Assembly: GCF_004010195.1 (NCBI RefSeq)
Contig: NC_057749.1
Coordinates: 16,103,831 to 16,167,830 of the forward strand
Reading direction: 5' to 3'
Length of the DNA: 64,000 bases
Source of the DNA: Chiloscyllium plagiosum
Lineage: Eukaryota
A model generated the notes under the pieces. It made no database searches. It was not told the DNA's origin and saw only the letters and a list, made by a program, of their open reading frames with translations. Below are positions 27,787 through 56,500 of the stretch, piece by piece; the first letter of the stretch is position 1, and each line of letters starts with the position of its first letter. The position numbers and the translations under genes are program-made.

Positions 27787-27929
27787 ATGGCCAGCACTTC
27801 CTTTTTAACCAACAGGAGGACCATTGGCACCCTCATGTTACTGGGGGCTGGCTCTCTGGCCAATGGGTTCTTACTCACAAGGGATTATATGAAAGCAAGG
27901 GCAAAACAGAGGAAATTGTATCCTCCCAG
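27787..27929 (+). CDS. ckmt1-like: Coding exon 1: mitochondrial transit peptide and mature N-terminus ([30 protein letters not shown]...RKLYPPS)
   Basis: aaaATGG Kozak context. GAGSLAxGFLL matches the CKMT1 presequence. Donor AG|gtaag at 27930. Acceptor ttcttcctgcag| ends at 27774. Confidence 0.93.
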
Positions 27930-30900
27930 GTAAGAAAAATATTTACATCTATATAGTTAAAAATCATACAACACCAGGTTATAGTCCAACAGGTTTAATT
28001 GGAAGCACACTAGCTTTCGGAGCGACGCTCCTTCATCAGGTGATCATGACTACATCTATATAGTTTTTTTTCGACAACTGAATGATTCAAAGCACTCTAC
28101 ACTAAATGAGGTATTTGGAAATATAGTCACTGTTGTGGTGTAGCGAACACAGCAGCATTAATCACACTCCAGTCAGCAAGGTGCTAAAGAGAAGGCAATT
28201 AGTTTTTGTTATGTTGATTCAGAGATAGGTATTTGCTCGGATACTCTGAAAAACTCACCTGTTCTTTGTCAAAATAGTGCCACAAAACGTTTATATCTAA
28301 GCTGACAGATATAGCCTTGGTTTAACATTGCATGAAGGTGATGCCTCTCCCACAGTGCAGTACCCCTCACTACTGCTCTGACAGTATCATCCTAGTTTTA
28401 AAAAATCACACAACACCAGGTTATAGTCCAGTAAGTTTATTTGGAAGCACTAGCTTTCAGAGCGCTGCTCCTTCATCAGGTGATTGTGGAGAATAAGATT
28501 GTAAGACACAGAATTTATAGCAAAAGTTTACAGTGTGATTTAACTGAAATTATATATTGAAAAAGACCCGGATTGTTTGTTAAGTCTCTCATCTTTTAGA
28601 ATGACCATGTTGGTTTCAGTTCTTTCATATGTAAATCGCAAAACTTTTTTTACAAGTTATATTCTCAAGTGCACTTTAACAATTGGTGTCATGTCAGCCC
28701 AGATAAGGTATTGAAGGTGTTAACTCCTTGTGAGGCTGTCTGTGCCACAATGGTCAGACTGATTGTAATCTAAAAATCAGATTTACAGAATCTTACATGG
28801 ATTCATGCAGTTTTTGAGCAAAGTAAAATGTAATTCTGCAAGTACAAATTCACCCCACAAACTTATATGTGTATGTGTCATGTGGGTGTGGAGGAGTGGG
28901 GGGTGGGGGTGGAGGTGGTTATGAGTGTCTGTGAGAGGGTGTATGTATGTGTGTGAGTATGAATGTAAAGGGGTTTAAGTCTGTGAAAGGATGTGTGTGT
29001 GAGTGTATGAGAGAGGGTGTGTGTGTATGTGTGTGTGTATATAGTGCAATGGAGGTCACCTATGGTGACCGTCTCCAAATCATCCTAGATTATGTGCTCA
29101 AATCCTAGAATCCATAATCCTGGGATTCAGGTGTAAGGACCAAGTTTAGGCCTATAGAACAAAAATGTGGGATTTTGGTCAGTGAAACTTTCTACAGCTA
29201 CTGGCCAGTTCTCCAGGGAACAAAAAACTTTGAATTTCAGAATTACAGATTGAGCACACTGCCAGTTAACATGGAAATAAATATTTGAGATCATTAATAA
29301 TAACATTTATTGCATTGCATGTTGTATTTTGACAATAGTAAAAAAATTACCCCCATTTTTAAAACCTACTTCTTTAACAAAGATATTTCCCACCCATCCT
29401 AACATCACCTTTGACTCATTGTCAAATCTTGCACTGATTACATTCCCATTAAGTCTCCTTTTGTATCACATTAAAGGTGCTATACATTAAAGGTGCTATA
29501 GAAATACAAATATTGTTGTGGGTGTATATTTATTCTACATTATGCTCTCAGTGCAGAATATCCTGATCTCCAAAAGCACAACAGCTACATGGCAACTTAC
29601 CTGACCCCTGATTTATATGCCAAACTTCATGATAAATCTACATCCAGTGGCTGGACACTGGATCAGTGCATTCAGACTGGAGTGGACAATCCTGGAGAGT
29701 CCATAGGAATAATAGCAGGAGATGAAGAATCATATGCAGTAAGTATAACTGTACTGTGAATATGGCCACTGAAAATACACAGAAAATACTCACATAGTGC
29801 ACAACAAAATCTGTCTATTCCAGGGGAGCATATTTGGATAAACTCAGCCTTGTGTTAGCCAGCCATGATTGCTTCACTTACCTTGTTGTTGTTTGCACTC
29901 TTCCTGAAAGCAAAGCTACCCTGAACTATGACCTCCACCTGGGTTTCTGAGGAAACATATGAATATCCAAAGTTGACAAATGGATCATCAAACCTATCCC
30001 ACTCTTCACTGACCAGAACACAAGGCATTTCTTTTCTTCTGTGAGTCATTGGGTGGGCAACTGATCCACAGGAAATTAATTCATAACCAATGTGCATCAA
30101 AATCCTTTAGAAAATATAATTCAGTAGCACCAGAGAGGTGAAGGAGCACAAGCTGCATTAGGCTCTAGATGTAAAAGGGAATAAATTATTGCTGTAAATA
30201 TCATAATACTGTAAGAGTAATGTATAAGAATAATGTTATAGAGTAATATAATATTACAATAGATTATCAGCAGGAGGTTAGACTGGATCAGGTGGACTTT
30301 GTGGAGAAAAACACTACAGCTGAATGGCTCACCTTTATTCTATAACTTCAGGAGCAGGAAAATGTGGATTGGACACAGCTATTTGAAGGGAAGTCCACAT
30401 TTGAGATGTGGGAGGCTTTCAAAGATAGGTTAACGGTAGTGCAGGATAGGCATGTCCCATTGAAGGCAAAGGATAGGAAAGGCAAGATTCGTGAACCGTG
30501 GATGACAGGAGAAATTGTATGACTAGCCAAGAGAAAAAGGGAAGCGTACATAAGGTCTAGGCAGTTAAGAACAGAACGGGCCCTGGGGAATATCAGAAGA
30601 GTAGGACAAGTCTTAAACAAGGAATCAAGCAGGCTAAAAGAGGTCATGAAATAGCTTTAGCGAGCAGAATTAAGGGAAATCCCAAAGCATTTTATTCTTA
30701 TATAAGAAGCAAGCGGGTAACTAGAGAAAGGATTGGTCCACTAAAAGATAATGAAGGAAGGCTGTGTGCCAAGGGTTGGTGATGATTCGCCATGGCAGAT
30801 TCGCTGCCGATGATTAGCCACTGCCAGTTCTCCACCAGCGTTTCTCCACTGGGGTCGTTTGACCTCTGGAGACTATTTGCTACTGGAAATATATATATGT

Positions 30901-33900
30901 AGTGATTGTTTTCCCTCCCGCCTATTCTTTCATACTTCTCAGTCCCCTTTATTTATACAATTACATACTACGTATTGATAACAAAGAGATAAAATAAATA
31001 TCATTTATTGGTTTATATATAAAATTGAGTTACAAACTTTAACCAGAAAAAGGAAATATATTTTAAAAATCTTTATAATGGCAGTAAAATCTCACATTAA
31101 TATTAAACAGTGAAATTTCAGTTCATTTGATAGTTATGCACTATTCCTCTAAGATATTCCAAACAATCTCTTTCACCATATTCAAGAACAACGCAACGCA
31201 AACACTACCTTAACCAATATAATGACAATTTTATATAGTTTAGATATGCTTGTTCTCTAACATTTTAAACTTTGTAAAATTTTTAAAAATCTATTAACAA
31301 AAATAAATGGTTATTAAAACAAGTAAACGCTACCACCAATATTCAAAATATTGCGGTGGCGAATCGTCTTCAGTGGCCAATGGGCGGTGGCTAAGCGTCC
31401 TCGGTGAACAATGGGCAGTGGCTAATCGTCGGCGGCGAATCTGCTGTGGCGAATGGTGCCATCCCGGTGTGCCAAACCTGAGAGAGTGGGTGAGATTCTG
31501 AATGTTTACTTTGTATCAGTGTTACTGAGGAGAGGAACATGATGAATCTTGAGACTAGAGATAGAAGTTTGATTAGTCTGGATCACGTTGGCATAAGTAG
31601 GGAAGATGTGTTAGGTATGCTAGAGGATATTAAGGTGGACAAATCCTCAGGACCGGATGGGATCTATCCCAGGTTGCTGAGGGAGATGAGAGGGGAAATT
31701 GCTGGGGCCCTGACAGACATCTTTGTGGCATCCTTAAATACAGGTGAGGTGCCGGAGGACTGGAAGGTTGCTCATGTTGTCCTCCTGTACAAGAAGGGTA
31801 GTAGGGATATTCCAGGTAACTACAGACCATTGAGCCTGACGTCGGTGGTGGGGAATTGCTGGTGAGGGGACTGAGAGATAGGCTCTATTTATATTTAGAA
31901 AAGAATGAGCTTATCAGTGATAGGCAACATGGTTTTGTGCGGGGGAGTTCATGCCTTACCAACTTAATACAGTTCTTCGAGGAAGTGACCAAGTTGTTAG
32001 ATGAAGGAAGGGCTGTTGATGTCATATACATGGACTTTAGTAAGGCGTTTGATAAGGTTCCCCATTGTAGACTAATGGAGAAAGTGAAGTCACATGGTGT
32101 GCAGGGTGTTCTAGCGAGGTGGATAAAGAACTGGTTGAGCAGCAGGAGATAGGGAGTAGTAGTTGAAAGGAGTTTCTCAAAATGGAGAAAGGTGACCAGT
32201 GGTGTTCCACAGGGGTCAGTGTTGGGGCCACTGTTGTTTGTAATATACATAAATGATCTAGAAGGGGACACTGTTGGTATGATCAGCAAGTTTGCAGATG
32301 ACACAAAGATTGGTGTAGTAGCAGAAAGCATCAGGGACTGTCAGAGAATACAGGTGAATATAGACTGGAGAGTTGGGCGGAAAAGTGGCAGATGGCTTTC
32401 AATCCAGACAAATGTGAGGTGATGCATTTAGGCAAGTCTAATTATAGAGTGAATTATACAATGAATGGAAGAGCCTTGGGAAAAGTTGATGGGCAGAGAG
32501 ATCTGGGAGTGCAGGTCCATTGTACCCTGAAGGTTGCTGCACAGGTGGATAGAGTGCTCAAGAAGACATATAGTATGCTTGCCTTCATTGGACGGGGTAT
32601 TGAGTAAAAGAGCTCGCAAGTCATGTTAAAATTGTACAAGATGTTGGTTCAGCTGCATTCAGAATACTGTGTACAGTTCTGGTCGCCACATTACCAAAAG
32701 GATGTGGACGCTTTGGAGAGGATGCAGAGTAGGTTTACGAGGATATTGCCTGGTATGGAAGGTGCTAGCTATGAAGAGAGGTTGAGTAGATTAGGTTTAT
32801 TTGCACTAGAAAAAAGGAGATTGAGGGGGGACCTGATTGAGGTTTACAAAATCATGAAGGGTATAAAGTTAAAAATCACACAACACCAGGTTATAGTCCA
32901 ACAGGTTTAATTGGAAGCACTAGCTTTCGGAGCGTCACTCCTTCATCAGGTGATTGTGGAGGGCTCGATCGTAACACAGAATTTATAGCAAAAATTTGCA
33001 GTGTGATGTAACTGAAATTATACATTGAAGAATTGATTGTCTGTTAAGCCTTTCATCTGTTAGAATACAGTGACAGTTTCACTTATTTCATTTGTAAATC
33101 ACAAAACCCTTTTTTTTAAAATTGCATTCTCGGGTTAGCTGTTAACAATGGTGATAACTAGACAATATGNNNNNNNNNNNNNNNNNNNNNNNNNNNNNNN
33201 NNNNNNNNNNNNNNNNNNNNNNNNNNNNNNNNNNNNNNNNNNNNNNNNNNNNNNNNNNNNNNNNNNNNNNNNNNNNNNNNNNNNNNNNNNNNNNNNNNNN
33301 NNNNNNNNNNNNNNNNNNNNTGTGTGTGTGTGTGTGTAGGAATATGTGAGAGTGTGTGTGTGTAGTGCAATGGTGATCACCTGTAATGTGACATGAACCC
33401 AAGGTCCCGGTTGAGGCCCTCCCTATGGGTACCGAACTTAGCTATCAGCCTCTGCTCGGCCACTTTCCTCTGCTGCCTGTCCTGAAGTCCACCTTGGACT
33501 TCGTGGTCCAGGACATTCAGCGTCGGACCTTCGGGTGACCATCCTCCAAGGTGGACTTCGGGAAGGAGGATGGACAGGTAGGACAGTCCAAGAGTGTGGT
33601 GCTGAGTTGGAGAGTTGGATCTGGGATGAGGTGGAGGGGAAGGGAGATGAGGAAGCTGGTGAAATTGATCCCGTATAGTTGGAGGGTCCAAAGGTGGAAG
33701 ATGAGGCATTCTTCCTCTCGGCGTCGGGTGGCTAGGCAGTGGAGGAGGCCCAGGACTTGCATGTCCTTGGCGAAGTGGGAGGGTGAGTTAAGTGTTTGGC
33801 CATAGGGCGGTGGGGTTGTTTAGTGCATGTGTCCCAGAGATATTCTCTGAAACGTTCTGGAAGTTGGCATCCTGTCTCTCCAATGTAGAGGAGAAGACAT

Positions 33901-36900
33901 CAAGAACAAGGGACACAGTAGATGATGTATGTGGAGGTACAGGAACGTCTGTCAGATGTGGAAGGATCCTTTGGGGCCTTGGATGAAGGTGAGGGTGAAG
34001 GTGTGGACACAGGTTTTACACCTCTTTCTCCACTGAACATGCTGAGCTCTTTGGTGCTGCTAACACTTGCTAACAATGTCACCTCCAACCATGCAGGTTT
34101 TTGCTGATATATTCGACCCTGTGATTAGAGAAAAGCACAATGGATACGATCCGAAGATCATGAAACATGTCAAAGATTTGGATGCAAGTAAAGTGAGTAG
34201 AAGCCAAACTGCTATATTCGTATTCAGTTTCTGAAAACAGAGCATTGTCTGCAAAGCTAACATTACTGGAAAACAGAACATAGATGACAGAACAGTACAA
34301 CACAGAAACAGGTTCTTCAGCCCACCACAATCCCATCTGCCTGTACATGATCCATATCCCTCTTTAGCCTGCCTGTTCATGTGTCTATCTAAATGCCTCT
34401 TAAACATTGCTATTGTATCTGCTTCTATCACCTCCCATGACAGTGCTTGTCAGGCACCTCTTTGTAAAAATCTTAACTCACACATCTCATTTAAATTTTC
34501 CACCCTCACCTTAAATCTCTGCCCCTTAATATTTGACATTTCTACCCTGGGAAAAAGACTCCAACTATTCATGCCTCTCATAGTTTATATATTTCTAATA
34601 AGTTGGCCCTCAGCCTCTGATGCTGTAGCATAAATAATCCAAGTATGTCCAATCTTTCCTGATAGCTAATACATTCCAATCCAGACAACGCCTGGTAAAC
34701 CCCCTTGCACCTTCTCTGAAGCCTCCACACCCTTCCCATACTGCAGCAACCAGAACTGCACACAACACTCCAAATGTAGCTTAACTAAAGTTTTATACAG
34801 CTGCAAAATGACCTGCCAACTTTTATACTCAAAGTACCAAGTGATGAAGGCAAATATGCCATATGTCATCTTATCCATTTGTGTTGCCACTTGCAGGAAG
34901 CTATGGACTTGCACCCCAAAATAACATGGAAGCAGCCAAGATAGTGGAAGCTTGAAACAGCTTGGCTGCTTAGCCATTGTTCTCAATGTGCTTTGGTAGG
35001 AAGAATAGAGGAGCAGAATATTATTTAAATGGAGAAACACTGCAGAAAGTTGCATAACCAAGGGATTTGGGAATCCTCATGCATAACTCAGAAAAGGCTA
35101 TCATCCAAGATCAGAAGGTAATAGGGAAGGCAATAGAATTTTGGCCTTATTTCAAAGGAAGTGGTACATAAAATAACGAAATCTTGCTAAAGCTATATAA
35201 GGCACTAGTTACACCACAGGATATTGTCAACAGATTTGGTTCCCTCTGTAAAGAAAGATTCACTGGCATTGGAAACAGTCTAGAAAAATTTCACTAGGTT
35301 GATTCTAGGTATTCCTTCTTACAAGAGGTTGAGTAGGTTAGACCTGTAATCATTAGAGCTTAAGAGAATGAGAAGTGGCCTTATTGAAACATATAAAATT
35401 CTTAAGGGGCTTGATAGAATAGATGCAGTGAAGTTGTTCCCCTTGTGGAACAGTCTAGGACCAGAGAGCATAATTTCACAGTAAGTGATCACCCATTTAA
35501 GAGATAAGAAGAATTTCTTCTCGAAGAGAGTAGGTATTCTTTACCATAGAGCGCTGTTGGGGCTCTATGGTGGTTACTAATAAACAAGGCTGAGATAGAC
35601 AGATTTTTAACCATAAGAAAATAAAGGGTTATAAGGAAAATGCAGGACGGTGGAGTTGAGGATTATCAGATCAACCATGATCTTATTGAGAAGTCTGTAC
35701 GTGATTTGTACGAAGGAATCAATTGGACCAACAGTGGAAATAAAAATTTACAGATAAAACATGAAATGCTGACTGTATTTTTTTTTGTTAGGTATTGAGC
35801 AAAGTCAAGGGGAAACAGGTGGGTAATGGCAATTCACTGTATTTTAATCCAGGCTATTGCTTCAGGTTATAGGATCAATGGCAGCTGCAGAATCCAGAAT
35901 AGAAAGTTAGTTTTAGCGATAGCAATCCGACATGTGATCCCAGACCCACTACAACGTGAGTGAATCTTACCTGCCCTCTGGAAGGCAAACCATTCATTTC
36001 AAGGGAAATTACTTGTGAGCGATGAATCTCTAAAAATAATTTTAAAATCTACCCCCCAGAGGCAGACTTTGTAAAGATTCCAGGCTCAACTATATAGAAA
36101 GCCTGTTAATAAACTGGAAATGGTGCAAAAAAGATTTATAAGGGTGTTTCTGAGACTGGAGGGTTTGCGTTATAAGGAGAGGCTGAATGGGCTGGGGCTT
36201 TTTTTCCTGGAACATAGGAGGCTGAGGGGTGACCTTGTAAAGGTTTATTAAAAAATCATGAGGAGCATGGATAAAGGTGTTTTCCCCAGGGTGGGGGAAT
36301 CCAAAACTGGAGGGCATAGGGTTTAAGATGAGAGGGGAAAGATTTAGAAGGGACACGAGGGACGTTTTCACACAGAGGGTGGTGTGTCTATGGAATGAGC
36401 TGCCGGAGGACATGGTACAGGTGAGTACAATTACAACATTTAAAAGACACTTGTATAGGTATGTTGATAGGAAAGGTATAAAATAATCTGAGCCAAATGC
36501 AAGCAGACGGGACTAGTTCAGTTTTGAAAACCTGGTTGACATGGACAAGTTGAGCAGCAGGGGTCTGTTTCCGTGCCAATAACTCTATGACTCTAATATT
36601 GAGGGAATAAAAGGAAAATACAGCAGATGTTGGAGATCTGAAATTAAATCAGAAAGTGTTGATGAAATTCAACAGGTCTGGCAGTGTCTAAGAAGAGAAA
36701 AACACAGTTAACATTTTTGAGTCTGATACAACTTGTCTTGAGCCAACATTAACAACGTTTCTCTCTTCAGTGTTGCTACGAAACTTGTATTTTCCAGCAC
36801 TTCTTGTTTTTATTTCAACACTGAGGAATAGTGTCACAAAAAAACTGGCTCAGTTAAGCACAAACTATGAAGTTTCCTATCTTTGTTTCCTTTACAGATT

Positions 36901-39900
36901 AGGAATGGACAGTTTGATGAAAACTATGTTCTTTCCTCACGTGTCAGGACTGGTCGAAGTATTCGAGGACTCAGCATGCCTCCTGCCTGCACTCGGGCTG
37001 AGAGGAGAGAGGTGGAGAGGGTGACTGTTGAGGCATTAGCTGGATTAAAGGGAGATCTAGCTGGAAAATACTACAGTCTGAGCAGTATGACAGATAAAGA
37101 GCAGCAACAGCTCATTGATGTAAGACAATGAACCACAATTCATCTTGGTTAGAAGGAACTGGCTGGTGCAGTGACCAGTGGCTTCCACACTAGCATTTCC
37201 AATGTGTCCTGAATGTTTCTTATATCTGCAAGGATTCAATATTGTAAGATTTTGTTAAATAATCACCAAGCTCCTGGGACCCTGCAGTATCGCACTGTCC
37301 CTCATTCTATGTGAATTGACAAAAAACATTCAGAACACTGTTGGTCAGTACAGATAGAGCTCTACTCTGTCTAGCTTTGGTCTAACTAACCTTGAAGTAT
37401 TTGATGGAAACAGTTGTTATGACCCACTTAAGAAAGTCTGTTGATTCTCAAGCCCCACTATTTTCAGGGTCACCACAACAATTAATGATTTAATCAAAGT
37501 AGGAAAAGTCCCAAAATATCTGCCTGGAGGAATCAGGATCTGGCACTTAATGCGAACTACAGTTTATTTCAAAAAGATATGTTTTAGCCAAATTATGAGC
37601 TATCAATTCTAACCCCCTTTTTGAACCCCTACACCCACCATACACAGAGTGGGACAAACAAAGAAAAAAAATTGGAATCACAGTTTAATTTTCCTGGTCG
37701 ACAGACGTCAAGAATGCAGTCCTTTTCTCTTCCCAAGTGTTTCTCTTCTGCTAATTCCTTCCTTCCAGATTCTCAGTTATTTGTCACAGACACAGGGGAT
37801 TTACACTTCAATTGTTAATTTCACAGTTAGAGGAAACAACTGACAGTAAATGAGAGGAGAGAATAGTTGACAATCTTAAAGTTTGGGTTATTTGGCTACA
37901 GAGAGATATGGACATATCCTGCTTCTTCCAGTCTTAAAACCTTTGGTCCCTGTGTCAATTCATCCCTAGTCATTGGCTTTAGAAATAGTTATTTTCTACT
38001 TTAGATCACAATCAATTAGTCAGAGAAATAATAAGATGCGGCCTCCACATGTCTCCAATTCCCACACCTGCAGAGGTCATCATGAAGGTCCATCCTCTCC
38101 AACGCGTTCCTTGCCTGAGATATATTGACTCTCAGGTTAAACCACCACTAGTTGTCTCTATGTAATGAGAGAGAAAGACTATGGTCCTTTGGGACTATTG
38201 CAACTTTACCTTGTACCTTTATATATCGTTACACAAAAAAAAATGCAGTCTTTATACATGTGTACAGGAAACTTTACTCTATATCTTAATCTCATGTTGT
38301 ATATCTTTCTATAGGATCACCTCTTGTTTAACAAACCAGCATCACCTTTCCACTTGTCTTCAGGGATGGCCAGGGATTGGCCCGATGCTCGGGGCATTTG
38401 GTAAGTTTGGATTCAGGAAAAAGGAGAGGATTGTGGCCAGGAAGGAAGGTAAACATGAAGTTTGCAATACTGAATTCCAAAACATCTGGAGATCTGAAAG
38501 TAATGCAGGTCAGCAGAGACAAGGTGGTGCAGGAAAATGATCATGCCAAGATGAGTGTTTCTGGGTCTAAATACAAGTGATGTTTTAAAAATAACCAAAC
38601 CATTCTGTTCCCACGTATCTACAGGTATAATAATGAGAAGACTTTCTCAATCTGGATCAATGAGGAGGACCATATTCGAATTATCTCCATGGAAAAAGGC
38701 GGTAACATGAAGAAAGTGTTTGAGAAATTCTGCCGGGGTCTCAAAGAGGTAAACAGTTATAAGAGCAACCGATCCATTAGGATCCTCCCGCCACTGTTGC
38801 ACAATCTGGAGCAGGCTATTCAGCCCAACATATCTGTCCGGGCTGTTTGAGAAAGTTATGCTGTTAGTCCTAATATTGAAGCCCCTCATCCTAACTCCCT
38901 CCTCACACAGCCCTGTAAATTTTCCCCTTTCAAATGTACCTCCAATTTTAACAGAATAAAAATAAGACCTATTTCAGAAGGAAACATTTCTCCACTAGAC
39001 ACCTTACCTCCTCCTCACTTTTACAAGCTGCCTTTTGTTTCAGTCACTTCCTCTTGAAACTTTGATTTATCCTGCTTCTTTGTTACTTTTGATGAAAATT
39101 GTTGAATTTTCCATGTTTTCCTGGCTTTTCTGTGCCTCATTGTTGAGCATTCATTAACATATGGAGTGGTTCAGGTGAATAGTATAGATTACATTTCGGG
39201 GAAAACGAGTGAACAAACTGAAGAGAAAGGAATGGAGAATGTTATCTTGATGGGGTTAGGTGAAGGTGAAAGGGGGCTGGGAAATCTGGTGTAGACAATA
39301 AGCTGCAGCACAAAATCAAATGCCCTGTTTTCATATTGTACACTCAATGTAACTCTATGACTCCATTCATCCTTGCCACTGTTAGAAAAACAGAATACAA
39401 TGCTGAGATTTGAAACAAAAATGTTTTTTCCAGATTGAGAAACTTATCGCTGAGAAAGGCTGGGAGTTTATGTGGAATGAGAGAATTGGCTACATCCTGA
39501 CATGCCCATCAAACCTGGGCACTGGACTCCGAGCTGGGGTACACATCAAACTACCCATGCTCAGCAAGGTACCAGCTCAATCTCATTTTCCAACTGGGCT
39601 TCAATTCTAATGGACATCATTTACTCTCCATTGTACATGACGCTGAAATCAGTTAGTCCTGATACACAAAACATTCGCAAACTACATGCTGAGAATACCA
39701 GTGAAAGGAAAGGGAATAAGGTAGGTCTCTCTCCTTTAGACGATGATAGAGAACTCCTTGTGAAATTAAGTGACAAATTAGGGGGCTGAGATTCCACAGG
39801 GATTCCTGCTCACAAGAAACAAAACAGAGGCTGCTTTAACATGGAACAGGACTAAACAGAACCTGACATGAACAGCCCACAGGTTAGCTGGTATAAGAAA

Positions 39901-42688
39901 TGGTAATGATCACAAAGACATTACAAGAGTTTGACTGGGGTAAGGGCTGGGGCTCATTGAAGAGGACAGTGCAGAAGGAGCTTTACTGTGCATTGTATCT
40001 CATGCTGTCCCTGCCCTGGGAGTGTAAAAGGAGCTTTACTCTGTCTCTAACCCAGCGCTGTCCCTGTTTAATGAAGACAGTAGAGAGGGAGTTTTACTAT
40101 GTCCAAGTTGTCTTGGGAGTTATTGAAATAAAAATTTTTCTTACCTGGTAGTGAAGCCTCTTGCTGTAACGAGCAGAAAACCACACAGGGAAAAAAAACC
40201 TCTCAAAATTAGAAGAGCCGATGGTATATGTTGACTAGTAGAGTAGAAGGACTGCCATAGATGCAATTACATTACACATACCACAGTATAAAGGGTGTAT
40301 GGTAGGAGTGACCAATGCACAGTGCTTGTGGACACCATTTCCTGTCTTCTCTTTGAGGATACACTCCATCATGCCGTGTGGCACTATCACCTTTATAACT
40401 GGGGTGGAAGAGGTCTAGTAACTCAAGACTGGGCATCTATGAGACTGTGGGCGATCAGCAAAAACAGGACTGCACTCAAACATAATCTGTAACCTCATAG
40501 TCCAGCAGATCCCTCACTGTATCATTACTATCAAGCTACAGGACCAAGTTTGTTCCATTAAAAATGTGAAAGGAGTTGCCGGATGTTCTCATGGAATACA
40601 GGGAGAACTAGCCATTTGGATACAGAACTGGCTCAAAGATTGAAGACAGAGGGTGGTGGTGGAGGGTTGTTTTTCAGACTGGAGGACTGTGACCAGTGCA
40701 GTGCCATAAGGAACGGTGCTGGGTCCTCTACTTTTTGTCAGTTACATAAATGATTTGGATGCGAGCATAAGAGGTACAGTTAGTAAGTTTGCAGATGACA
40801 CCAAAATTGGAGGTGTAGTGGACAGCGAAGAGGGTTACCTCAGATTACAACAGGATCTGGACCAGATGGGCCAATAGGCTGAGAAGTGGCAGATGGAGTT
40901 TAATTCAGATAAATGCGAGGTGCTGCATTTTGATAAATCAAACCTTAGTAGGACTTATACACTTAATGGTAGGGTCCTAGGGAATGTTGCTGAACAAATA
41001 GACACTGGAGTGCAGGTTCCTAGCTCCTTGAAAGTGAAGTCGCAGGTAGATGGGATAGTGAAGAAGGNNNNNNNNNNNNNNNNNNNNNNNNNNNNNNNNN
41101 NNNNNNNNNNNNNNNNNNNNNNNNNNNNNNNNNNNNNNNNNNNNNNTTATGAGAGGCATGGATAGGATAAATAGACAAATTCTTTTCCCTGGGGTGGGGG
41201 AGTCCAGAACTGGAGGGCACAGGTTTAGGGTGAGAGGGAAAAGATATAAAAGAGACCTAAGGGGCAACTTTTTCACGCAGAGGGTGGTACATGTATGGAA
41301 TAAGCTGCCAGAGGATGTGGTGGAGTCTGGTACAATTGCAACATTTAAGAGGCATTTTGGATGGGTAATGAATAGGAAGGGTTTGGAGGGATATGGGCCG
41401 TGTGTTGGCAGGTGGGACTAGATTGGGTTGGAATATCTGGTCGGCATGGACGGGTTGGACCGAAGGGTCTGTTTCCATGCTATACAACTCTATGACTCTA
41501 TACTATCGGGCATAGCCAAAAATGAGGTGTCAATCTGATGGTGCCACAAAGAGGGCTGTTTCGCCTTTCAAACAGCATAAGCAGCAAGTGATAAACAAAG
41601 CTAACAAATTCCTCAATCAACAAGTCAGATCTAAGCTCAGCAATTCTGCCACATCCATTTGCAAATAGTGGACAATTAAACAATTCAATAGAGGAGTAGG
41701 TTCCACAAATATTCCCATTCTTAACAATGGGGGACCCCAGCATTTCATTGCAAAGGATAAGGCTGAGGCAGCCACAACAATCTTAACTTAGTCTTTGGCC
41801 AATGCAATTCACTCCACTTGATATCAAGGAAAGGCAGAAGACACTGAATACTGCAAAGGGTGCTGACAATATTTCAATATTAGTACTGAAGATTTACTCT
41901 CCAAAATGTGGCATACCCTGTAGCCATACTGTTCTAATACAACTGCAATACCGGTATTAATCTAACAATGTTGGACTATAACCTGGTGTTGTGTGATTTT
42001 TAATTTGGATGTTAACAGACAGCTTTTTGTTTGATAGAAGCTCCCTGTTATCTTTAATTTCTGATTCAGGATCCTCGCTTCCCGAAGATCCTGGAGAACC
42101 TGCGACTGCAGAAACGAGGGACAGGGGGAGAGGACACCGAAGCTGTGGACAGCGTGTTTGATATCTCAAACCTGGACCGTCTGGGGAAATCTGAGGTGAG
42201 TTACCACAGTTTATTATACAGTGGTTATGTAATGGGGAAGGCACAAGGGGGCAGTAGGGGAGAGAAAAGTGTACATGAATAGGTTTCCTTGAAGGGATCT
42301 CGAGATAACAAAGGGAGAATTTGTGGGAGGGGTCAGGATTCATTGGGGAAGTGAAGGGGGGAATACAGGGAAATTGGAACAGAAGAAGGGGAGGATATCA
42401 GTTCAGGGATAGATTTCCTTTGGGAAGTGAAGGAAGGATCAAGCATGGCAATTGGACGGGAAAAGAGGCATGGAGAGGGGATTATCTTTCCAAAACAAAA
42501 ATAGGATTCTCCCTCCCCCTTTTGATAATGTAAAAGTCTAATCTTGAATGTCTTGTTCCTTTCTTCAGGTGGAGCTTGTTCAATTAGTGATTGATGGAGT
42601 CAACTATTTAATTGAGTGTGAGAAGAGACTCCAGCAAAGTCACGATATCCAAATCCCACCCGCCCTACGCATAAACAGTTACCATTGA
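27787..42688 (+). CDS. ckmt1-like: Mitochondrial creatine kinase U-type-like phosphagen kinase, 9 coding exons, 412 aa, divergent substrate pocket
   Basis: Hand-spliced exons 27787-27929, 29552-29738, 34097-34192, 36898-37119, 38315-38400, 38625-38748, 39434-39568, 42070-42195, 42569-42688 total 1239 nt in one open frame with GT-AG introns. U-type diagnostic strings: [50 protein letters not shown]. Confidence 0.96.
27959..28050 (-). mobile_element. 92-bp Penelope terminal fragment with hammerhead core, in intron 1
   Basis: 15-bp TSD tacatctatatagtt (27944-27958 and 28051-28065). Minus strand reads cac-CTGATGA-aGGAGC-gtc-GCTCC-GAAA-GCTA-gtg. Confidence 0.85.
28396..29078 (-). mobile_element. 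Penelope 3' UTR fragment with hammerhead core and TG microsatellite
   Basis: 10-bp TSD atcatcctag (28386-28395 and 29079-29088), same terminus as 27959. Confidence 0.85.
29552..29738 (+). CDS. ckmt1-like: Coding exon 2 ([19 protein letters not shown]...[20 protein letters not shown])
   Basis: ctctcag| acceptor and |gtaagt donor. 187 nt, 12 nt shorter than the equivalent human CKMT1 segment. Confidence 0.95.
30350..32865 (+). mobile_element. CR1 LINE ORF2 fragment, interrupted by a DNA transposon
   Basis: ORFs 31539..32910 with [40 protein letters not shown] and FADD. Confidence 0.93.
30773..31466 (-). mobile_element. Non-autonomous Mutator/MULE-like DNA transposon
   Basis: 9-bp TSD gtgtgccaa (30764-30772 and 31467-31475), ~55-bp imperfect TIRs built of ttcgcc/ggcgaa repeats, internal remnant [21 protein letters not shown] (31118-31195, minus). 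Confidence 0.8.
32866..33559 (-). mobile_element. Penelope 3' end with hammerhead core (32921-32949), spans a gap
   Basis: [33 protein letters not shown]-terminus, same terminus family as 28396. Confidence 0.85.
33560..34026 (-). repeat. Near-identical copy of the Penelope segment starting at 25871
   Basis: Long stretches read base-for-base identical with only scattered differences. Confidence 0.85.
34097..34192 (+). CDS. ckmt1-like: Coding exon 3 ([32 protein letters not shown])
   Basis: catgcag| acceptor with upstream gctaac branch-like motifs, |gtgagt donor, 96 nt. Confidence 0.95.
34280..35690. mobile_element. Two decayed CR1 fragments (minus 34280-34920, plus 34990-35690)
   Basis: [17 protein letters not shown] on minus, degenerate CR1 C-terminus and tail on plus. 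Confidence 0.8.
36110..36596 (+). mobile_element. CR1 3' end
   Basis: [14 protein letters not shown], tail ctctatgactct. Confidence 0.88.
36898..37119 (+). CDS. ckmt1-like: Coding exon 4 ([24 protein letters not shown]...EQQQLID)
   Basis: tttacag| and |gtaag, 222 nt, seen in ORF 36883..37131. Confidence 0.97.
38315..38400 (+). CDS. ckmt1-like: Coding exon 5 ([29 protein letters not shown])
   Basis: ttctatag| and |gtaagt, 86 nt, [13 protein letters not shown] motif. Confidence 0.96.
38625..38748 (+). CDS. ckmt1-like: Coding exon 6 ([41 protein letters not shown])
   Basis: tctacag| and |gtaaac, 124 nt, catalytic NEED motif at 38659-38670. Confidence 0.96.
39434..39568 (+). CDS. ckmt1-like: Coding exon 7 ([45 protein letters not shown])
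   Basis: ttttttccag| and |gtacc, 135 nt, CPSNLGT signature with reactive Cys at 39503-39505. Confidence 0.97.
40585..41500 (+). mobile_element. CR1 LINE 3' portion (spans a gap)
   Basis: [13 protein letters not shown] and [15 protein letters not shown], tail ctctatgactct. Confidence 0.92.
42070..42195 (+). CDS. ckmt1-like: Coding exon 8 ([42 protein letters not shown])
   Basis: ctgattcag| and |gtgagt, 126 nt. Confidence 0.96.
42569..42688 (+). CDS. ckmt1-like: Coding exon 9 ([39 protein letters not shown])
   Basis: ctttcttcag| acceptor, TGA at 42686-42688. Confidence 0.95.
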
Positions 42689-42700
42689 GATGTATATCTC

Positions 42701-42706
42701 ATTAAA
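42701..42706 (+). terminator. Candidate polyadenylation signal ATTAAA
   Basis: First poly(A) hexamer after the stop, just before an antisense CR1 3' end. Confidence 0.4.
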
Positions 42707-42708
42707 CA

Positions 42709-43880
42709 TAGAGTCATAGTCATACAGATGTACAGCACGGAAACAGACTCTTTGGTCCAACTCGTCCATGCCAATCACATATCCTAACCTAGTCTAGTCC
42801 CATTTGCCAGGTCTTGGCCCATACCCTATTCATAAACCCTTCCAGATGCCTTTAAATGTTGCAATTGTATCAGCCTCCACCACTTCCTCTGGTAGCTTAT
42901 TCCATACACACACCACCCTCTGTGTGAAAATGTTGTCCTTTAGGTCCCTTTTATATCTTTCGCCTCTCTCCCTAAACCTATGCCCTCTAGTTCTGGACTC
43001 CCCGACCCCAGGGAAAAGACTTTGACTATTTACCCTATCCATGCCCCTCAATATTTTATAAACCTCTATAAGGTCCCCCCTCAACCTTCGACACTCCAGG
43101 GAAAACAGCCCCAGCCTATTCAGTCTCTCCCTATAGCTCAAATGCTCCAACCCTGGCAACATTCTTGTAAATCCGTTCTGAATCCTTTCAAGTTTCACAA
43201 CATCCTTTCAATAGGAAGGAGACCAGAATTGCACGCAGTATTCCAAAAGTGGCCTAACCAATGTCCTGTACAGCCGCAACATGACCTCCCAACTCCTGTA
43301 CTCAATACTCTGACCAATAAAGGAAAGCATACCAAACACCTTCTTCACTATCCTATCTATCTGCGACTCTACTTTCAAGGAGCTATGAACCTCCACTCCA
43401 AGGTCTCTTTGTTCAACAACACTCTCTAGGACCTTATCATTGAGTGTAAAAGTCTTGCTAGGATTTGCTTTTCCAAAATGCAGCACCTTGCATTTATCTG
43501 AATTAAACTCCATCTGCCACTTCTCAGCCCATTGGTCCATCTGATCAAGAACCCATTGTAATCTGAGGTAACCTTCTTTGCAATCCACTACACCTCCAAT
43601 TTTGATATAATCTGCAAACTTACTAACTATACCTCCTATGTTCACATCCAAACTGTTTATGTAAAAGACAAAAAGTAGTGACCCAGCACTGATCCTTGTG
43701 GCATTCCACTGGTCACAGGCCTCCAGTCTGAAAAACAACTCTCCACCTTCTGCCTTAAAGCCAGTTTTGTATCCAAATGGCTAGTTGTCCCTGTGTTCCA
43801 TGAGATTTAACCTTGCTAACCAGTGTCCTATGGAAAACCTTGTAGAACACCTTACTGAAGTCCATATAGATCACGTCCAC
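42709..43880 (-). mobile_element. CR1 LINE 3' portion
   Basis: ORFs 42830..43198 and 43208..43738. Confidence 0.93.
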
Positions 43881-51539: not shown

Positions 51540-53500
51540 TAGAACATGGAACAGTACAGCACAGTACAGGCTTTTTGGGCCTCAATGTTGTATCAGCCTT
51601 TTATCCCACTCTAAGATCAGACTAACCTATATACCCTTCATTTTACTATCTTCCATGTGCCTATCCAAGATTTGTTTAAATGTCCCTAATGTATCTGACT
51701 CTATTACCACTGCTGGCAGTGCATTCCAGGCACCCACCACTCTCTGTGTAAAGAACCTACCTCTGACATCGCCCCTAAACCTTCCTCCAAACACCTTAAA
51801 ATTATGCCTCCTCGTGATAGCCATATTCACCTGGGAAAAAGTCTCTGGCTATCCGTTCTACCAATGCCTCTCATCATCTTGGACACCTTGATCAAATTGC
51901 CTCTCATCCTTCTTTGCTGCAATGAGAAAAGCCCTAGCTCCCTCAACCTTTCTTCATAAGACATGCCCTCCAGTCCAGGCAACATCCTGGTAAATCCCCT
52001 CTGCACTCTCTCTAAAGCTTCCACATCTTTCCTATAATGACGTGACCAGAACTGAACACCATATTCCAAGTGTGGTCTAACTTGGGCTTTATAGAGCTGC
52101 AGCATAACCTTGTGGCTCTTAAACTCAAACACCCTGTTAATGAAAACCAACATACCGTACTCCTTCTTAACAACCCTACCAACTTGGGTGGCAACTTTGA
52201 GGGATCTACGTACATGGACTCCAAGATCCCTCTGTTCCTCCACACTGCCAAGAATCCTGCCTTTAACTCTGTATTCTGCATTCAAATTCAACCTTCCAAA
52301 GTGAATCACTTCACACTTTTCCAGGTTGAACTCCATCTGCCTCTTCTCAGCCAAAGTTAAAAATCACACAACACCAGGTTATAGTCCAACAGGTTTAATT
52401 GGAAGCCCACTATCTTTCACTGTTGGACTATAACCTGGTGTTGTGTGATTTTTAACTTTGTACACCCCAGTCCAACACCGGCATCTCCAAATCATTCTCA
52501 GCCCAGTTCCGCATCCTGTCAATGTCCCAATGAAACTTACAACAGCTGTCCACACTATCCGCAACTCCACCAACTTTTGTATCATTGGCAAACTAACCCA
52601 TCCTTCTACTTCCTCATCCAAGTCATTTATAAAAGTCACAAGGAGCAAAGGTCCCAAGAACAGATCCCTGCAGAACACCACTGGTGACTGAGATCCAGGC
52701 TGAATACTTTCCATATACCACCAACCTCTGTCTTCTATGGGTGAGCCAATTCTGTATCCAGACAGCCAGATTTCCCTGTATCCTATGCCTCCTTACTTTC
52801 TGAATGAGCCTATCATGGGAAACCTTATAAAATACCTCGCTAAAATCCAGGTACACCACATCACTGCTCTACCTTCATCAATGTTTATTGTCACATCCTT
52901 ATAGAATTCAATAAGGTTTGTGAGGCATGGCCTACCCCTCACAAAGCCATGCTGACTATCTCTAATCAAACTATGGTTTTCCAAGTAATCATAAATCCTG
53001 TCTCTCAGAATCCTCTCCAATATTTTGCCCACCACTGATGTAAGACTGACTGGTCTGTTATTCCCAAGATTATCCCTATTCCCTTTCTTGAACAAGGGAA
53101 TAACATTTACCACCCTCCAATCATCTGGCACTACTCTAATAGACAGTGAGAACGCAAAGGCACAGCAATCTCTTCCCTCATTTTTTGCATTATCCTTGGG
53201 TATATCCCATCCGGCCCAGGTTATTTATCTATTCTTAGGTTTTTCAAAGTTTTCAGCGCATACTCCTTCCTAACATCAACCTGTTTGAGCATATCAATCG
53301 GTTTCATGCTGTCCTCAGAAACGTCAGGTCCCTCTCAGTAGTGAATATTGATGCAAAGTATTCATTAAGGTCTTCCCCTTCCTCCTCCTACTCCAGGCAC
53401 AAGTTCCCTCCATTCTCCCTGATCAGCCCTACCCTCACTCTGGCCATCCTCTTGTTCCTCACTTAAGGGTAGAAAGCATTAGGGTTTTTGTTAATCCTTG
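51540..53500 (-). mobile_element. CR1 LINE ORF2 with a nested Penelope fold-back insert (52353-52494)
   Basis: ORFs 51627..53131 carry CR1 RT motifs. The insert is flanked by TSD ttctcagcc (52344-52352 and 52495-52503). Confidence 0.92.
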
Positions 53501-56500
53501 ATTCTGAGTAATTCAAGATGGAGGATGGGAAAAATGTCTGGGTGTAACAGGCTGCTCTTTTTTTGAGGTATTTTAGGTGCTGGATGTGATTTCCTCGAAT
53601 TCCAGGAGCAGCAATTCCTGTTTTATATGCTGTTGCATTATTTTGGAACTTTGGAGAAAAAATCAGTCAAATCAACAGCACTTTTAAAATGGAGAGGAAC
53701 AGACAAATGCAGCACCTGGTCTGTGCAGAGAGACACCCACACTGCTAACTGACACAGCAGTGAACCTGCGCAGTTACTGCCTTTGCTGTTTGAATTCTTG
53801 CATCGCTGGATATCGAAGTGTGTTTGGGAAAATTAACCAACAGTGAAATTCACAACTGACCTTGGAGGAACCTGTTTAGGAGAGGTCACAGCACAGAAAC
53901 ACATAAGTAAATATTTTTAAGGGTGGCCTTGCTGTAAGTCTGCTGTATTGAGTATATGGGTGCTTTCTTGATTATATATTTTATTGAGATCTGTCTTTTG
54001 ATTAAACCTAAAAATATAAACCATAAGTGTGAAGTTAGCCTGGAGTATTGTTTTGTAGAGGAATAACACGGCGCTATTTTTTGGGTCTGCAGATTTGAAG
54101 AAGCAAAAATGGCCCTTAGTAGAGTGATGTGCTCTTCTTGTCGGATGTGGAAGTTCAGTGAGAGTTTACGTGGCACTGAGAATTATATCTGCAATAAATG
54201 CCATTGGTTGCAAATCCTATCAAATCGAATGGATCGGATGGAGCAACATTCAGAAGCAATGAAGAATTTACAAGTGCAAGGGGACGTGATGGATGGCAGT
54301 TATAGGAAGGGAAAAGAGTCGCCAATACAGTCACATAGATGAGTTAACTCCAGGAAAGTTAAGAAATTTAGGCAGGAAGTGCAGGAGCCTTCTGTGGCTA
54401 TCTCCATTTCAAATAAGTATGCTGTTTCGGAAAATGTAGGGGATATGGATTTTCAGGGGAACGTAGCACAAGCAGCTAAGTTTCTGGTATCAAGACAGAC
54501 TCTAACGTAATGAGGGGTATGTTGGGTTCCAAGAAATCAATCATATTAGGAGACCCTCTAGTCCGAGGCACAGACAGATGATTCTGTGGCCAGCAGCAAA
54601 ATATCAGAATGGTGTGTTGCCTCCCTAGTGCCAGGATCAAAGATGTCTCAGAGAGGGTGCAGAATGTTCTCAAAGGGGAGAGGGACCAGCAGGAGGTCAT
54701 TGTACACATTGGAATTAATGACGTAGGAAGGAAAAAGAATGAGATCTGAAGGGAGATTATAGAAAGTTAGGCAGGAATTTAAAAAGGAAATCATCAAGAG
54801 TAGTACTATCTGGATTACTCCTGGTGCTACGGGCTAGTAAGGATAGGAATAGGAGGACAGAGCAGATGAATGCATAGCTGAGGAGCTGGTGTATGGGAGA
54901 AGGATTCACATTTTTGGATCATTGGAATCTCTTCTGGGGTAGAAGTGACCTGTACAAGAAGGACAGATTGCTCCTGAATTGGAAGGGGGCTAGTATATTG
55001 GCTGGGAGCTGCCCAGGAGGATTTAAACTAGTAAGGTGGGGGGGGGGGGGGGGGGTGGGATCCAGGGAGATAGTGAGAAAAGAGATCAATCTGAGACTGG
55101 TACAGTTGAGAAAATAAGTGAGTCAAACAGTCAGGGCAGACAGGAACAAAGCAGAGAGCAAGGCAGGATGGATAAATTCAACTGAATTTATTTCAATGCA
55201 AGGGGCCTAACAGGGAAGGCAGATGAGCATGGTTAGGAACATGGGACTGGGATATCATAGCAATTACAGAAACATGGCTCAGGGATGGCTTAATGTTCCA
55301 GGATACAAATGCTACAGGAAGGACAGAAAGGGAGGCAAGAAAGGAGGGGGAAATGGGTTTTTGATAAGGGATAGCATTACAGCTGTACTGAGGGAGGACA
55401 TTCCCGGAAATACATCCAGGGACGTTATTTGGGTAGAACTGAGAAATAAGGAATGGATGATCACCTTATTGGGATTGTATAAGAGATCCCTTAATAGGCA
55501 GCGGGAAATTGAGAAACAAATTTGTGAAGAGATTTCAGTTATCTATAAGAATAATAGAGTGGTTATGGTAGGGGATTTCAACTTTCCAGACATAGAAAGG
55601 AACTGCCATAGTGTTAAGGGTTTGATGGAGAGGAATTTGTTAAGTGTGTACAAGAAAATTTTCTGATTCAGTATGTGGATGTACCTACTAGAGAAGGTGC
55701 AAAACTTGACCTACTCTTGGGAAATAAGGCAGGGCAGGTGACTGAGGTGTCAGTGGGGGAGCACTTTGTGGCCAGCGACCATAAGTCTATTAGATTTAAA
55801 ATAATGATGGAAAAGGATAGACCAGATCTAAAGAAGTTCTAAATCGGAGGAAGGCTAATTTTGATGGTATTAGGCAAGAACTTTCAAAAGCTGATTGGGG
55901 GCAGATGTTTGCAGGTAAAGGGACGGTTGTAAAATGGGAAGCCTTCAGAAATGAGATAACTAGAATCCAGAGAAAGTATATTTCTGTTAGGGTGGAAGGG
56001 AAGGCTGGTAGGTATTGGGAATGCTGGATGACTAAAGAAATTGAGGGTTTGGTTATGAAAAAGAAGGAAGCATATGTCAGGTACAAACAGGATGTTTCAA
56101 GTGAATCTTTAGAAGAGTATAAAATCAGTAGGAGTATACTTAAGAGGGAAATCAGGAGGGCAAATAGGGGACATGAGATAGCTGTGGCTAATAGAGTTAA
56201 GGAGAATCCAAAGACTTTTTACAAATACATTAAGGACAAAAGGTTAACTAGGGAGAGAGTGGGGCTCCTTAAAGATCAGCAAGGGGGCTTTTGTGTGGAG
56301 CCACAGGAGATGGGGGAGATACTAAATAAGTATTTTGCATCGGTGTTTACTGTGTAAAAGGACATGGAAGATATAGAAAGTAGGGGAAAAGATGGTGACA
56401 TCTTAAAAAATGTCCATACCTACAGAGGAGGAAGTGCTGGATGTCTTGAAATGCATAAAAGTGGATAAATCCCCAGGACTTGATCAGGTGTACCTGAGAA

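Follow-up and report, generated by a model that had tools for sequence, protein, structure and literature searches.

In ubiquitous mitochondrial creatine kinase (uMtCK, the product of CKMT1), closure of the loop that carries His61 is specific for creatine, a salt bridge between His61 and Asp321 latches both substrate loops, and the substitutions H61A and H61K substantially lower the binding of creatine and phosphocreatine, according to the excerpted part of a cryo-EM preprint (bioRxiv 10.1101/2024.06.18.598884). The residues His61-Ile64 of uMtCK are His66-Ile69 in the numbering of cytosolic creatine kinase (CK), in which Ile69 and Val325 are the two hydrophobic residues that turn inward and form the specificity pocket (excerpt of PMC12387690). 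Among the phosphagen kinases, the extent of the deletion in the guanidino-specificity (GS) region is correlated with the mass of the substrate (excerpts of PMC3836730 and PMC11492440), which bears out a sequence-only reading of the locus described here that loop length inversely tracks substrate size. The residue in the column of CK Arg96 is Arg in CK, Ile in glycocyamine kinase (GK), His in taurocyamine kinase (TK) and Lys in lombricine kinase (LK), and a change of Lys95 in an LK switches its substrate (excerpt of PMC3836730). Here, we describe a stretch of 64,000 nucleotides (nt) from the shark Chiloscyllium plagiosum (assembly GCF_004010195.1, contig NC_057749.1, positions 16,103,831 to 16,167,830, forward strand), referred to as the window, which at 27787-42688 (+) holds an intact CKMT1-like paralogue with nine coding exons from ATG to stop. 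In this natural vertebrate enzyme the three mapped determinants of creatine specificity have all changed together, to states of invertebrate enzymes that handle larger substrates.

One of these changes, a four-codon deletion in the GS loop, is genuine, is fixed in the family Hemiscylliidae and appears in a spliced transcript. From the predicted protein we propose, with some hesitation, that the gene encodes an active kinase whose specificity would have shifted from creatine to a larger, non-methylated guanidino substrate, a reading to which we give slightly less than an even chance.

The deletion in the guanidino-specificity loop

Joined over GT-AG introns, with AG/GT borders at all nine exons, the coding sequence translates letter for letter into the 412-residue protein P0217, publicly named 'creatine kinase U-type, mitochondrial-like isoform X1 [Chiloscyllium plagiosum]'. 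Both ATP:guanidino phosphotransferase domains were recovered from it at full length by Pfam (PF02807, E=5e-31, profile positions 1-67 of 67; PF00217, E=8e-79, positions 1-202 of 203), which places it in the phosphagen (ATP:guanidino) kinase superfamily. An AlphaFold2 model of P0217 reached a mean predicted local distance difference test score (pLDDT) of 87.2, and of 92 over the block containing the shortened loop, and its best Foldseek match was human uMtCK (1qk1, 77% identity). Residues 1-36 scored below 50; this N-terminus can be aligned to the presequence of the genome's canonical CKMT1 and is variable at 5 sites among three hemiscylliid species. The canonical gene, also intact and of nine exons, follows on that strand at a distance of about 31 kb downstream, the paralogue being the upstream member of the tandem pair, and it keeps a full-length loop and the motif GGVDTAAVGS. 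The features of the paralogue are the following (dS, synonymous divergence).

27787..27929 (+), exon 1: N-terminal presequence-like region, aligning with the presequence of the canonical copy
29552..29738 (+), exon 2: carries the shortened GS loop; 0 variable residues in the three hemiscylliids; dS against the canonical exon 0.73
29679..29729 (+), shortened loop: junction between 29696 and 29697; codons for uMtCK His61-Ile64 missing
34097..34192 (+), exon 3: codon 34133-34135 is Lys123, in the column that holds Arg in CK (Arg96), Tyr in arginine kinase (AK) and Lys in LK
36898-37119 (+), exon 4: inside the gene-conversion tract 36852..37322
38315..38400 (+), exon 5: Phe to Leu219, Val to Ala225, Leu to Phe228 and Leu to His229 at otherwise invariant sites
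38625..38748 (+), exon 6: NEED box retained (Glu258, Glu259, Asp260); Leu to Ser253
39434-39568 (+), exon 7: catalytic Cys310 in CPSNLGT; inside the conversion tract 39141..39901
42070..42195 (+), exon 8: C-terminal specificity loop; 0 variable residues in the three hemiscylliids
Codons within exon 8: Glu352 (42130-42132) at CK Val325, Glu355 (42139-42141) at Ala, Asp358 (42148-42150) at Gly331
42569..42688 (+), exon 9 and stop: diverged C-terminal tail, DIKIP to DIQIP

A second C. plagiosum isoform, X2 (P0220, 378 residues), reads through the donor of exon 8 (window 42196 onward) and ends after nine intron-encoded residues.

The loop junction falls within exon 2 between Gly96 (29694-29696) and Glu97 (29697-29699), 145 nt from the AG acceptor of the exon and 39 nt (13 codons) from its GT donor. 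Where the canonical CKMT1 reads GGG CAC CCT TTC ATA AAG ACT GTG GGC ATG GTT GCA, the paralogue reads GGA GAG TCC ATA GGA ATA ATA GCA, a clean difference of 12 nt, and after the junction it has Glu, Ser and Ile in place of Lys, Thr and Val. When the protein was searched against the PDB with phmmer, a gap of 4 residues was needed versus 16/16 of the CK sequences matched, the absent residues (hpfi) being His61-Ile64 of uMtCK. The in-frame loss of four codons that had been noticed in the sequence is thus confirmed, as is its position: in frame and mid-exon, it is not a splice artefact. The pattern of CKMT1, G-HPFIKTV-G with the latch His (His61/66) and the methyl-pocket Ile (Ile64/69), is not present in the paralogue. 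The two functional losses ascribed to the deletion hold as well, given that the literature cited above supports both the latch between His61 and Asp321 (His66 and Asp326 of cytosolic CK) and the creatine N-methyl pocket of Ile69 and Val325, and that the His and the Ile are both missing here.

Over the loop, the paralogue aligned at equal length with LK 3jpz, sea-cucumber AK 3ju5 (printed row QNGVDNPDFHLGLLAGDEETY), sea-anemone AK 4rf6 (printed row SGVVNLDSGVGVYAGDEESY) and ordinary AKs in the same phmmer search, while GK is one residue longer than CK across the loop range. The claim that the loops of AK, LK and TK are all four residues shorter than that of CK stands, by gap-free alignment, for LK and the CK-lineage AKs, but not for TK: annelid cytoplasmic TKs lack five residues in the loop and trematode TKs have fewer residues still than AKs (excerpt of PMC3836730).

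The same loop occurs in predicted orthologues from three separate assemblies, of C. plagiosum (P0217), C. punctatum (P0219) and Hemiscyllium ocellatum (P0003), and the reading frame is open throughout the predicted proteins of all three species, the C. punctatum model being without the first 16 residues. It is accordingly no private allele of the sequenced animal. Four small sequencing runs, guessed to be RNA and none recorded as such, were mapped onto window 29300-42900. Run X15, from a close relative, gave a 952-nt contig that spans exon 2, gap-free and with 2 mismatches, and then runs into exon 4 without a mismatch; between these stretches it has 96 letters, as many as exon 3. In another X15 contig exons 7 and 8 are joined at GT..AG and show 0 and 1 mismatches. 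Since these contigs are joined exon to exon, they are spliced products, and the short-loop gene is transcribed in the close relative. A contig of run X20 departs from the window at 29692 and continues with codons for G-H-P-F-I-K-T-V-G; it derives from the message of the canonical CKMT1, which cross-maps at 90% likeness, and does not contradict the deletion. Contigs of the canonical CKMT1, cross-mapping at that likeness, likewise made up most of what runs X17, X18 and X20 gave here, and X18, which does not cover exon 2, is uninformative on expression in its organism.

Other specificity sites and related duplicates

To place the remaining changes, the three hemiscylliid copies were compared with 32 ordinary mitochondrial CKs (mtCKs), from sponge to mammal, a site being counted if its residue is kept in at least 31/32 of these. 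At 14 positions the three copies have in common a residue that differs from the kept one, and none of the 32 ordinary mtCKs has the state of the paralogue at the GS loop, Arg96 or Val325. Exons 2, 5 and 8 account for 11 of the 14, and the Arg96 site is another.

Exon 2: positions 59, 97, 99, 101, 102
Exon 3: positions 123, 136
Exon 5: positions 219, 225, 228, 229
Exon 6: position 253
Exon 8: positions 352, 355

Lys123 stands in the column of CK Arg96 and AK Tyr89, which holds Arg in 32/32 ordinary mtCKs. Glu352 replaces CK Val325 (uMtCK Val320), a residue of the methyl pocket of CKMT1 that is Val in 32/32 ordinary mtCKs. At Gly331, a number counted off on the CK alignment, the paralogue has Asp358; this Gly is kept in fewer than 31/32 and hence falls outside the 14. 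Asp353, equivalent to CK Asp326, is retained. The 22-residue peptide of the C-terminal loop (C-loop) matched LK best in the PDB (25.9 bits), with muscle CK essentially tied (25.8 bits), and has the Glu and the Asp of LK at positions where CK has Val and Gly. Across 34 single-domain representatives covering both loops, a short GS loop goes with Gly-Glu in the C-loop in nearly all, and a loop of CK length mostly with Gly-Val, P0358 being one exception. The representatives P0297, P0305 and P0278, searched against the PDB, were all closest to the two-domain AK 4rf6 and to TK 4wo8, with none near LK, and a protein search with the exon-8 peptide returned mostly multi-domain flagellar CKs and no named LK or TK. 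The catalytic apparatus has been left alone: the paralogue has the invariant residue in each of the 15 columns that do not vary across an alignment of 56 phosphagen-kinase sequences, and it retains the near-invariant Cys310, Glu258/259 and Arg157/159/263/347/368.

Glu at the Val325 position is also present in mtCK duplicates of other vertebrates, which have full-length loops. Alignments and a pattern scan yielded the following Glu325-type copies; the scan, which took in 471 proteins and listed 17, with the representatives P0223-P0370 outside the listing, picked out the frog and eel copies among the proteins that the search with the exon-8 peptide had brought in.

Heterodontus francisci: P0015 and P0221, both on the contig that carries its canonical CKMT1 (P0381)
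Batoids: Pristis pectinata P0029, Amblyraja radiata P0161/P0222, Rhinoraja longicauda P0175
Frogs: Phyllobates P0160, Leptobrachium P0168/P0445
Eel and perciform: Conger P0440; Scortum P0449

Besides the Glu, these copies have altered SPLLT and AAG motifs, Ser in the Thr71 column and mostly Asp at Gly331, and they lie on the same contig as the canonical copy wherever the contig is known. Of the frog, eel and perciform proteins, the three that cover the specificity loop have Ser in it; the batoid copies carry a two-residue insertion there (GHEHSF.KSIG) and further altered C-loops (RGENT, QGENT). The 4-residue deletion and Lys123 are confined among Glu325-type copies to the hemiscylliids, all 8 others having Arg in the latter column. 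Publicly, the copies are named only 'creatine kinase U-type, mitochondrial-like' or hypothetical protein, and in the literature searched we found nothing on V325A, V325E or I69A, on an elasmobranch mtCK paralogue, on ckmt3 or a third mitochondrial CK, or on the shark, frog or fish copies. Two further proteins drew attention: a 'U-type-like' protein of Ascaphus truei (P0182) is intermediate, with the loop HPFSMSVG and Ser at the Thr71 position and with Val retained at 325, and in the Conger conger model P0440 about 130 unrelated N-terminal residues replace the presequence, which probably reflects a fused or mis-started model.

In a 29-row maximum-likelihood tree (careful search), the paralogue fell in the CKMT1 clade (95/93) and its chondrichthyan subclade (99/98), with a shark Glu-type clade at 99/97 and a batoid Glu-type clade at 89/99. 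In this whole-protein tree and in one of 45 rows (quick search), Glu-type copies grouped with the ordinary CKMT1 of their own lineage, and the frog, eel and perciform proteins grouped with their own lineage's CKMT1 or CKMT2, apart from the shark copies. A single Glu325 clade across all jawed vertebrates was rejected on whole proteins by the approximately unbiased (AU) test (p=0.0017); a single clade of all elasmobranch Glu-type copies was not (AU p=0.162). The Glu325 type has thus either originated repeatedly or descends from old tandem pairs homogenised by gene conversion like that at the window locus, and under either origin the recurrence of the signature argues for a selected alternative function.

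Selection, gene conversion and competing explanations

Between the paralogue and the canonical copy, dS is 0.66-1.0 in exons 1, 2, 3, 5 and 9, with a ratio of nonsynonymous to synonymous divergence (dN/dS) of 0.12-0.34, and 0.34-0.40 in exons 6 and 8; the overall dN/dS is 0.24. Two tracts are nearly identical between the copies.

36852-37322 (+), conversion tract 1: exon 4 and intron flanks, 471 bp, 99.4% identical to G000:C40:16189481-16189951
39141-39901 (+), conversion tract 2: exon 7 and flanks, 762 bp, 96.6% identical to G000:C40:16203679-16204431

Exon 4 itself is identical at 222/222 nt and the intron downstream of it at 197/200 nt, exon 7 is 97.8% identical with flanks at 188/193 and 197/198 nt, and introns outside the tracts are scarcely alignable. 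High dS in most exons together with near-identical exons 4 and 7 indicates an old tandem duplicate with recent local gene conversion. The locus thereby displays conversion and selection exon by exon, exons 4 and 7 being homogenised while the specificity exons 2, 5 and 8 are kept apart and still diverged.

The same genome has three more CK-like loci, at G000:C41:6342453-6355144 (+), C10:39652301-39666631 (-) and C9:39655110-39674308 (+), which exon for exon are 38-75% identical to CKMT1 and presumably represent cytosolic CKs and a further, more divergent member; none of the scored CK-like candidates of the genome was of CKMT2-like closeness. Pfam scans of 36 of the 64 long open reading frames (ORFs) of the window recovered fragments of the long interspersed element (LINE) type only, with reverse transcriptase, an endonuclease/exonuclease/phosphatase domain and a GDSL-esterase-like ORF, at these places:

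52793-53224 (-), LINE-type fragment
55211-55666 (+), LINE-type fragment
56694-57140 (+), LINE-type fragment
59150-59575 (-), LINE-type fragment
61622-62113 (+), LINE-type fragment

A reverse-transcriptase-like ORF lies in intron 2 of the paralogue (about 30346-30780), and in its intron 1 (about 28780-29110) there is CA/TG-rich low complexity, with His-Thr and Cys-Val repeat translations and no call by Tandem Repeats Finder.

Among the three hemiscylliids 23 positions are variable, none of them in exons 2, 4 or 8; zero variable sites in exons 2 and 8 has P=0.001, or 0.00015 with exon 4 set aside. The 24 inferred crown changes have a mean BLOSUM62 score of +0.33, versus -0.35 to -0.47 for random nonsynonymous single-base changes of the coding sequence (P=0.010-0.023), and the ORF and all 16 splice sites of the window gene are intact. 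Together these patterns point to some purifying selection on the paralogue.

With the latch His and the methyl-pocket Ile missing and with Arg96 and Val325 changed, poor binding of creatine is to be expected. In the mechanism that we propose, loss of His61-Ile64 has removed the His that latches both loops over creatine together with the Ile of the N-methyl pocket, the change of Arg96 to Lys has altered the residue beside the pocket, and Glu has taken the place of the methyl-pocket Val325, two further acidic residues having arisen in the same C-terminal loop. The resulting combination, a loop of AK/LK length, Lys95/96 and GGE.T.AVD, is that of LK, and the product may be an active mitochondrial phosphotransferase of much weakened affinity for creatine, its pocket acidic, more open and resembling those that take larger non-methylated guanidino compounds. 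Candidate substrates would be arginine, taurocyamine, lombricine-like compounds or other guanidino acids.

Several observations weigh against such a shift in specificity. Asp326 is kept in the paralogue where LK, AK and TK have His, and the Asp at the start of the AK loop is Gly, and therefore the pocket is no copy of that of any known enzyme. CK is stated to be the only phosphagen kinase known in vertebrates, with no non-creatine phosphagen (excerpt of PMC6429109). The RNA status of run X15 is a guess of the tool, so that exon-exon joins constitute the evidence for transcription. Among the best 120 of 3646 matches there was no Glu325 copy in Stegostoma, Rhincodon, Cetorhinus, Carcharodon or Scyliorhinus, nor in Heptranchias, Hemitrygon, Narcine or Callorhinchus, a patchy distribution from which the copy would be dispensable in many lineages or simply unannotated there. 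Loss of His61 may simply cripple substrate binding. Finally, the paralogue evolves fast: the paralogues of C. plagiosum and C. punctatum differ at 15/396 residues and the canonical copies of the same species pair at 2/417, an approximately 7-fold faster divergence; the hemiscylliid stem branch measures 0.17 changes per site versus 0.007-0.04 for canonical end branches; and crown changes have hit positions otherwise invariant in mtCKs (D128N, P129L, G271S, R275K, L304I, G397S, D399N). Outside the loop exons, near-neutral evolution is compatible with a rough k-mer-based guess of the neutral divergence.

This faster evolution relative to the neighbour keeps a loss-of-function explanation alive, in which the gene is a relaxed or decaying duplicate that has lost creatine binding with the His61 latch and the methyl pocket and drifts as a weakly active or inactive protein, staying open-framed only through slow shark evolution and repeated patching by gene conversion from its healthy neighbour. 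The rate, the long stem, the crown substitutions, the conversion tracts over exons 4 and 7, the lack of the copy among the annotated proteins of many elasmobranchs and the lowered creatine affinity of the uMtCK His61 mutants (excerpted preprint above) all fit this explanation, which we rate as unlikely. Against it stand an intact ORF with all splice sites, proteins open in three species, retention of all invariant catalytic residues, and transcription with correct splicing. Moreover, the changed loop exons are the most conserved among the three species (0/23 variable sites), the crown substitutions are conservative, the changes concentrate in the substrate loops and go toward states of working enzymes, and the Glu325 signature recurs in other vertebrate lineages.

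Somewhat less probable still, in our judgement, is that the protein remains a creatine kinase whose kinetics have changed, for instance towards a higher Km or another tolerance of pH or osmolytes, and serves as a tissue- or condition-specific isoform. It lies within the vertebrate CKMT1 clade at 77% identity to human uMtCK, it keeps Asp326, the Ser/Ile pair at the Thr71/Val72 positions and all catalytic residues, and enzymes of the CK family are often somewhat promiscuous, annelid enzymes being of low substrate specificity (excerpt of PMC3836730). Yet all three known creatine determinants, the His66-Ile69 loop, Arg96 and Val325, are gone together, whereas single substitutions of His61 already strongly lower creatine binding in uMtCK (excerpt of bioRxiv 10.1101/2024.06.18.598884) and the methyl pocket is formed by Ile69 and Val325 (excerpt of PMC12387690); besides, none of the ordinary mtCKs compared has any of these states. 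The small share of probability that these readings leave goes to other roles. An artefact, be it an error of assembly or annotation or an allele private to the sequenced animal, is already effectively refuted: no support for it was found, the sole HPFIKTV-type reading (at 29692, run X20) being a transcript of the canonical gene, and it is opposed by three species in three assemblies with the same loop, a relative's spliced contig with 0 gaps over exon 2, and the separate presence of the full-loop canonical gene 31 kb downstream.

A shift of specificity away from creatine thus remains the reading that we prefer. A bolder version of it, rather doubtful but worth stating, is that the hemiscylliid enzyme is a working mitochondrial phosphagen kinase that prefers a substrate other than creatine, LK/TK/AK-like and convergent from CKMT1, and as such the first non-creatine system in a vertebrate, and that the Glu325-type duplicates of elasmobranchs, frogs and teleosts form a recurrent second class of guanidino kinases. 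If so, the Glu325-type duplicates would act on non-methylated substrates such as guanidinoacetate, and the hemiscylliid deletion would be a further step, to a larger substrate. Epaulette and bamboo sharks are known for their tolerance of hypoxia, and a link of the hemiscylliid enzyme with this trait is conceivable. If active, the enzyme would open the search for an unrecognised vertebrate phosphagen, and would amount to a second, independent replay of the transition from CK to LK/AK, informative on how the specificity of phosphagen kinases is encoded.

Comparison with known phosphagen kinases

The paralogue has a fold in common with human uMtCK (1QK1/9B04; 77% identity to 1QK1) and the nine-exon structure and strand of the shark's own CKMT1, with which it stands in tandem. 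The catalytic Cys, the acidic NEED box, the phosphate-binding arginines and Asp326 are common to CKMT1 and the paralogue, which differs by a loop 4 residues shorter, by Lys at Arg96, Glu at Val325 and Asp at Gly331, and by alteration of four exon-5 residues and Leu253. The Glu325-type duplicates resemble it in the Glu at Val325 and the Ser at the Thr71 position, without the deletion and without Lys at Arg96.

Of the enzymes with other substrates, the LK of the worm Urechis caupo (3JPZ), which is of the CK lineage and has also departed from creatine, has a GS loop of the same length, 21 to 21 residues without a gap (3jpz 49-69), and a C-loop GGE.T.AVD (Gly-Gly-Glu ... Ala-Val-Asp) as in the paralogue. 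It also has Lys at the Arg96/Tyr89 position, the LK residue here being that given in the excerpt of PMC3836730 rather than one from our alignment. Overall identity is only 57%, and LK has His where the paralogue keeps Asp326. Since the paralogue is nested in vertebrate CKMT1, the resemblance is not due to common descent with the LK, TK or GK of annelids and is convergent.

The CK-lineage AKs, the dimeric enzyme of a sea cucumber (3JU5/3JU6; GVDNP-DFHL-GLLAGDEE in 3JU5, 57% identity) and the two-domain enzyme of a sea anemone (4RF6), align without a gap in the loop and set a precedent, in that a CK-like scaffold has there been adapted to a larger substrate. The C-loop Glu of AKs (Gly-Glu-His-Thr motif) has its counterpart in Glu352, which aligns with the Glu of TK 4wo8 and of AK-like representatives, whereas AKs have Asp at the start of the loop (Asp62), and ordinary AKs have Tyr in the column of Limulus Tyr89, where the paralogue has Gly96 and Lys123, respectively.

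By descent, then, the paralogue is a CKMT1; at three specificity sites its predicted protein departs from the residues of CK and carries those of LK. Its nearest precedents are the invertebrate enzymes of the CK lineage that left creatine, namely the LK and TK of annelids and the AKs of sea cucumber and sea anemone.

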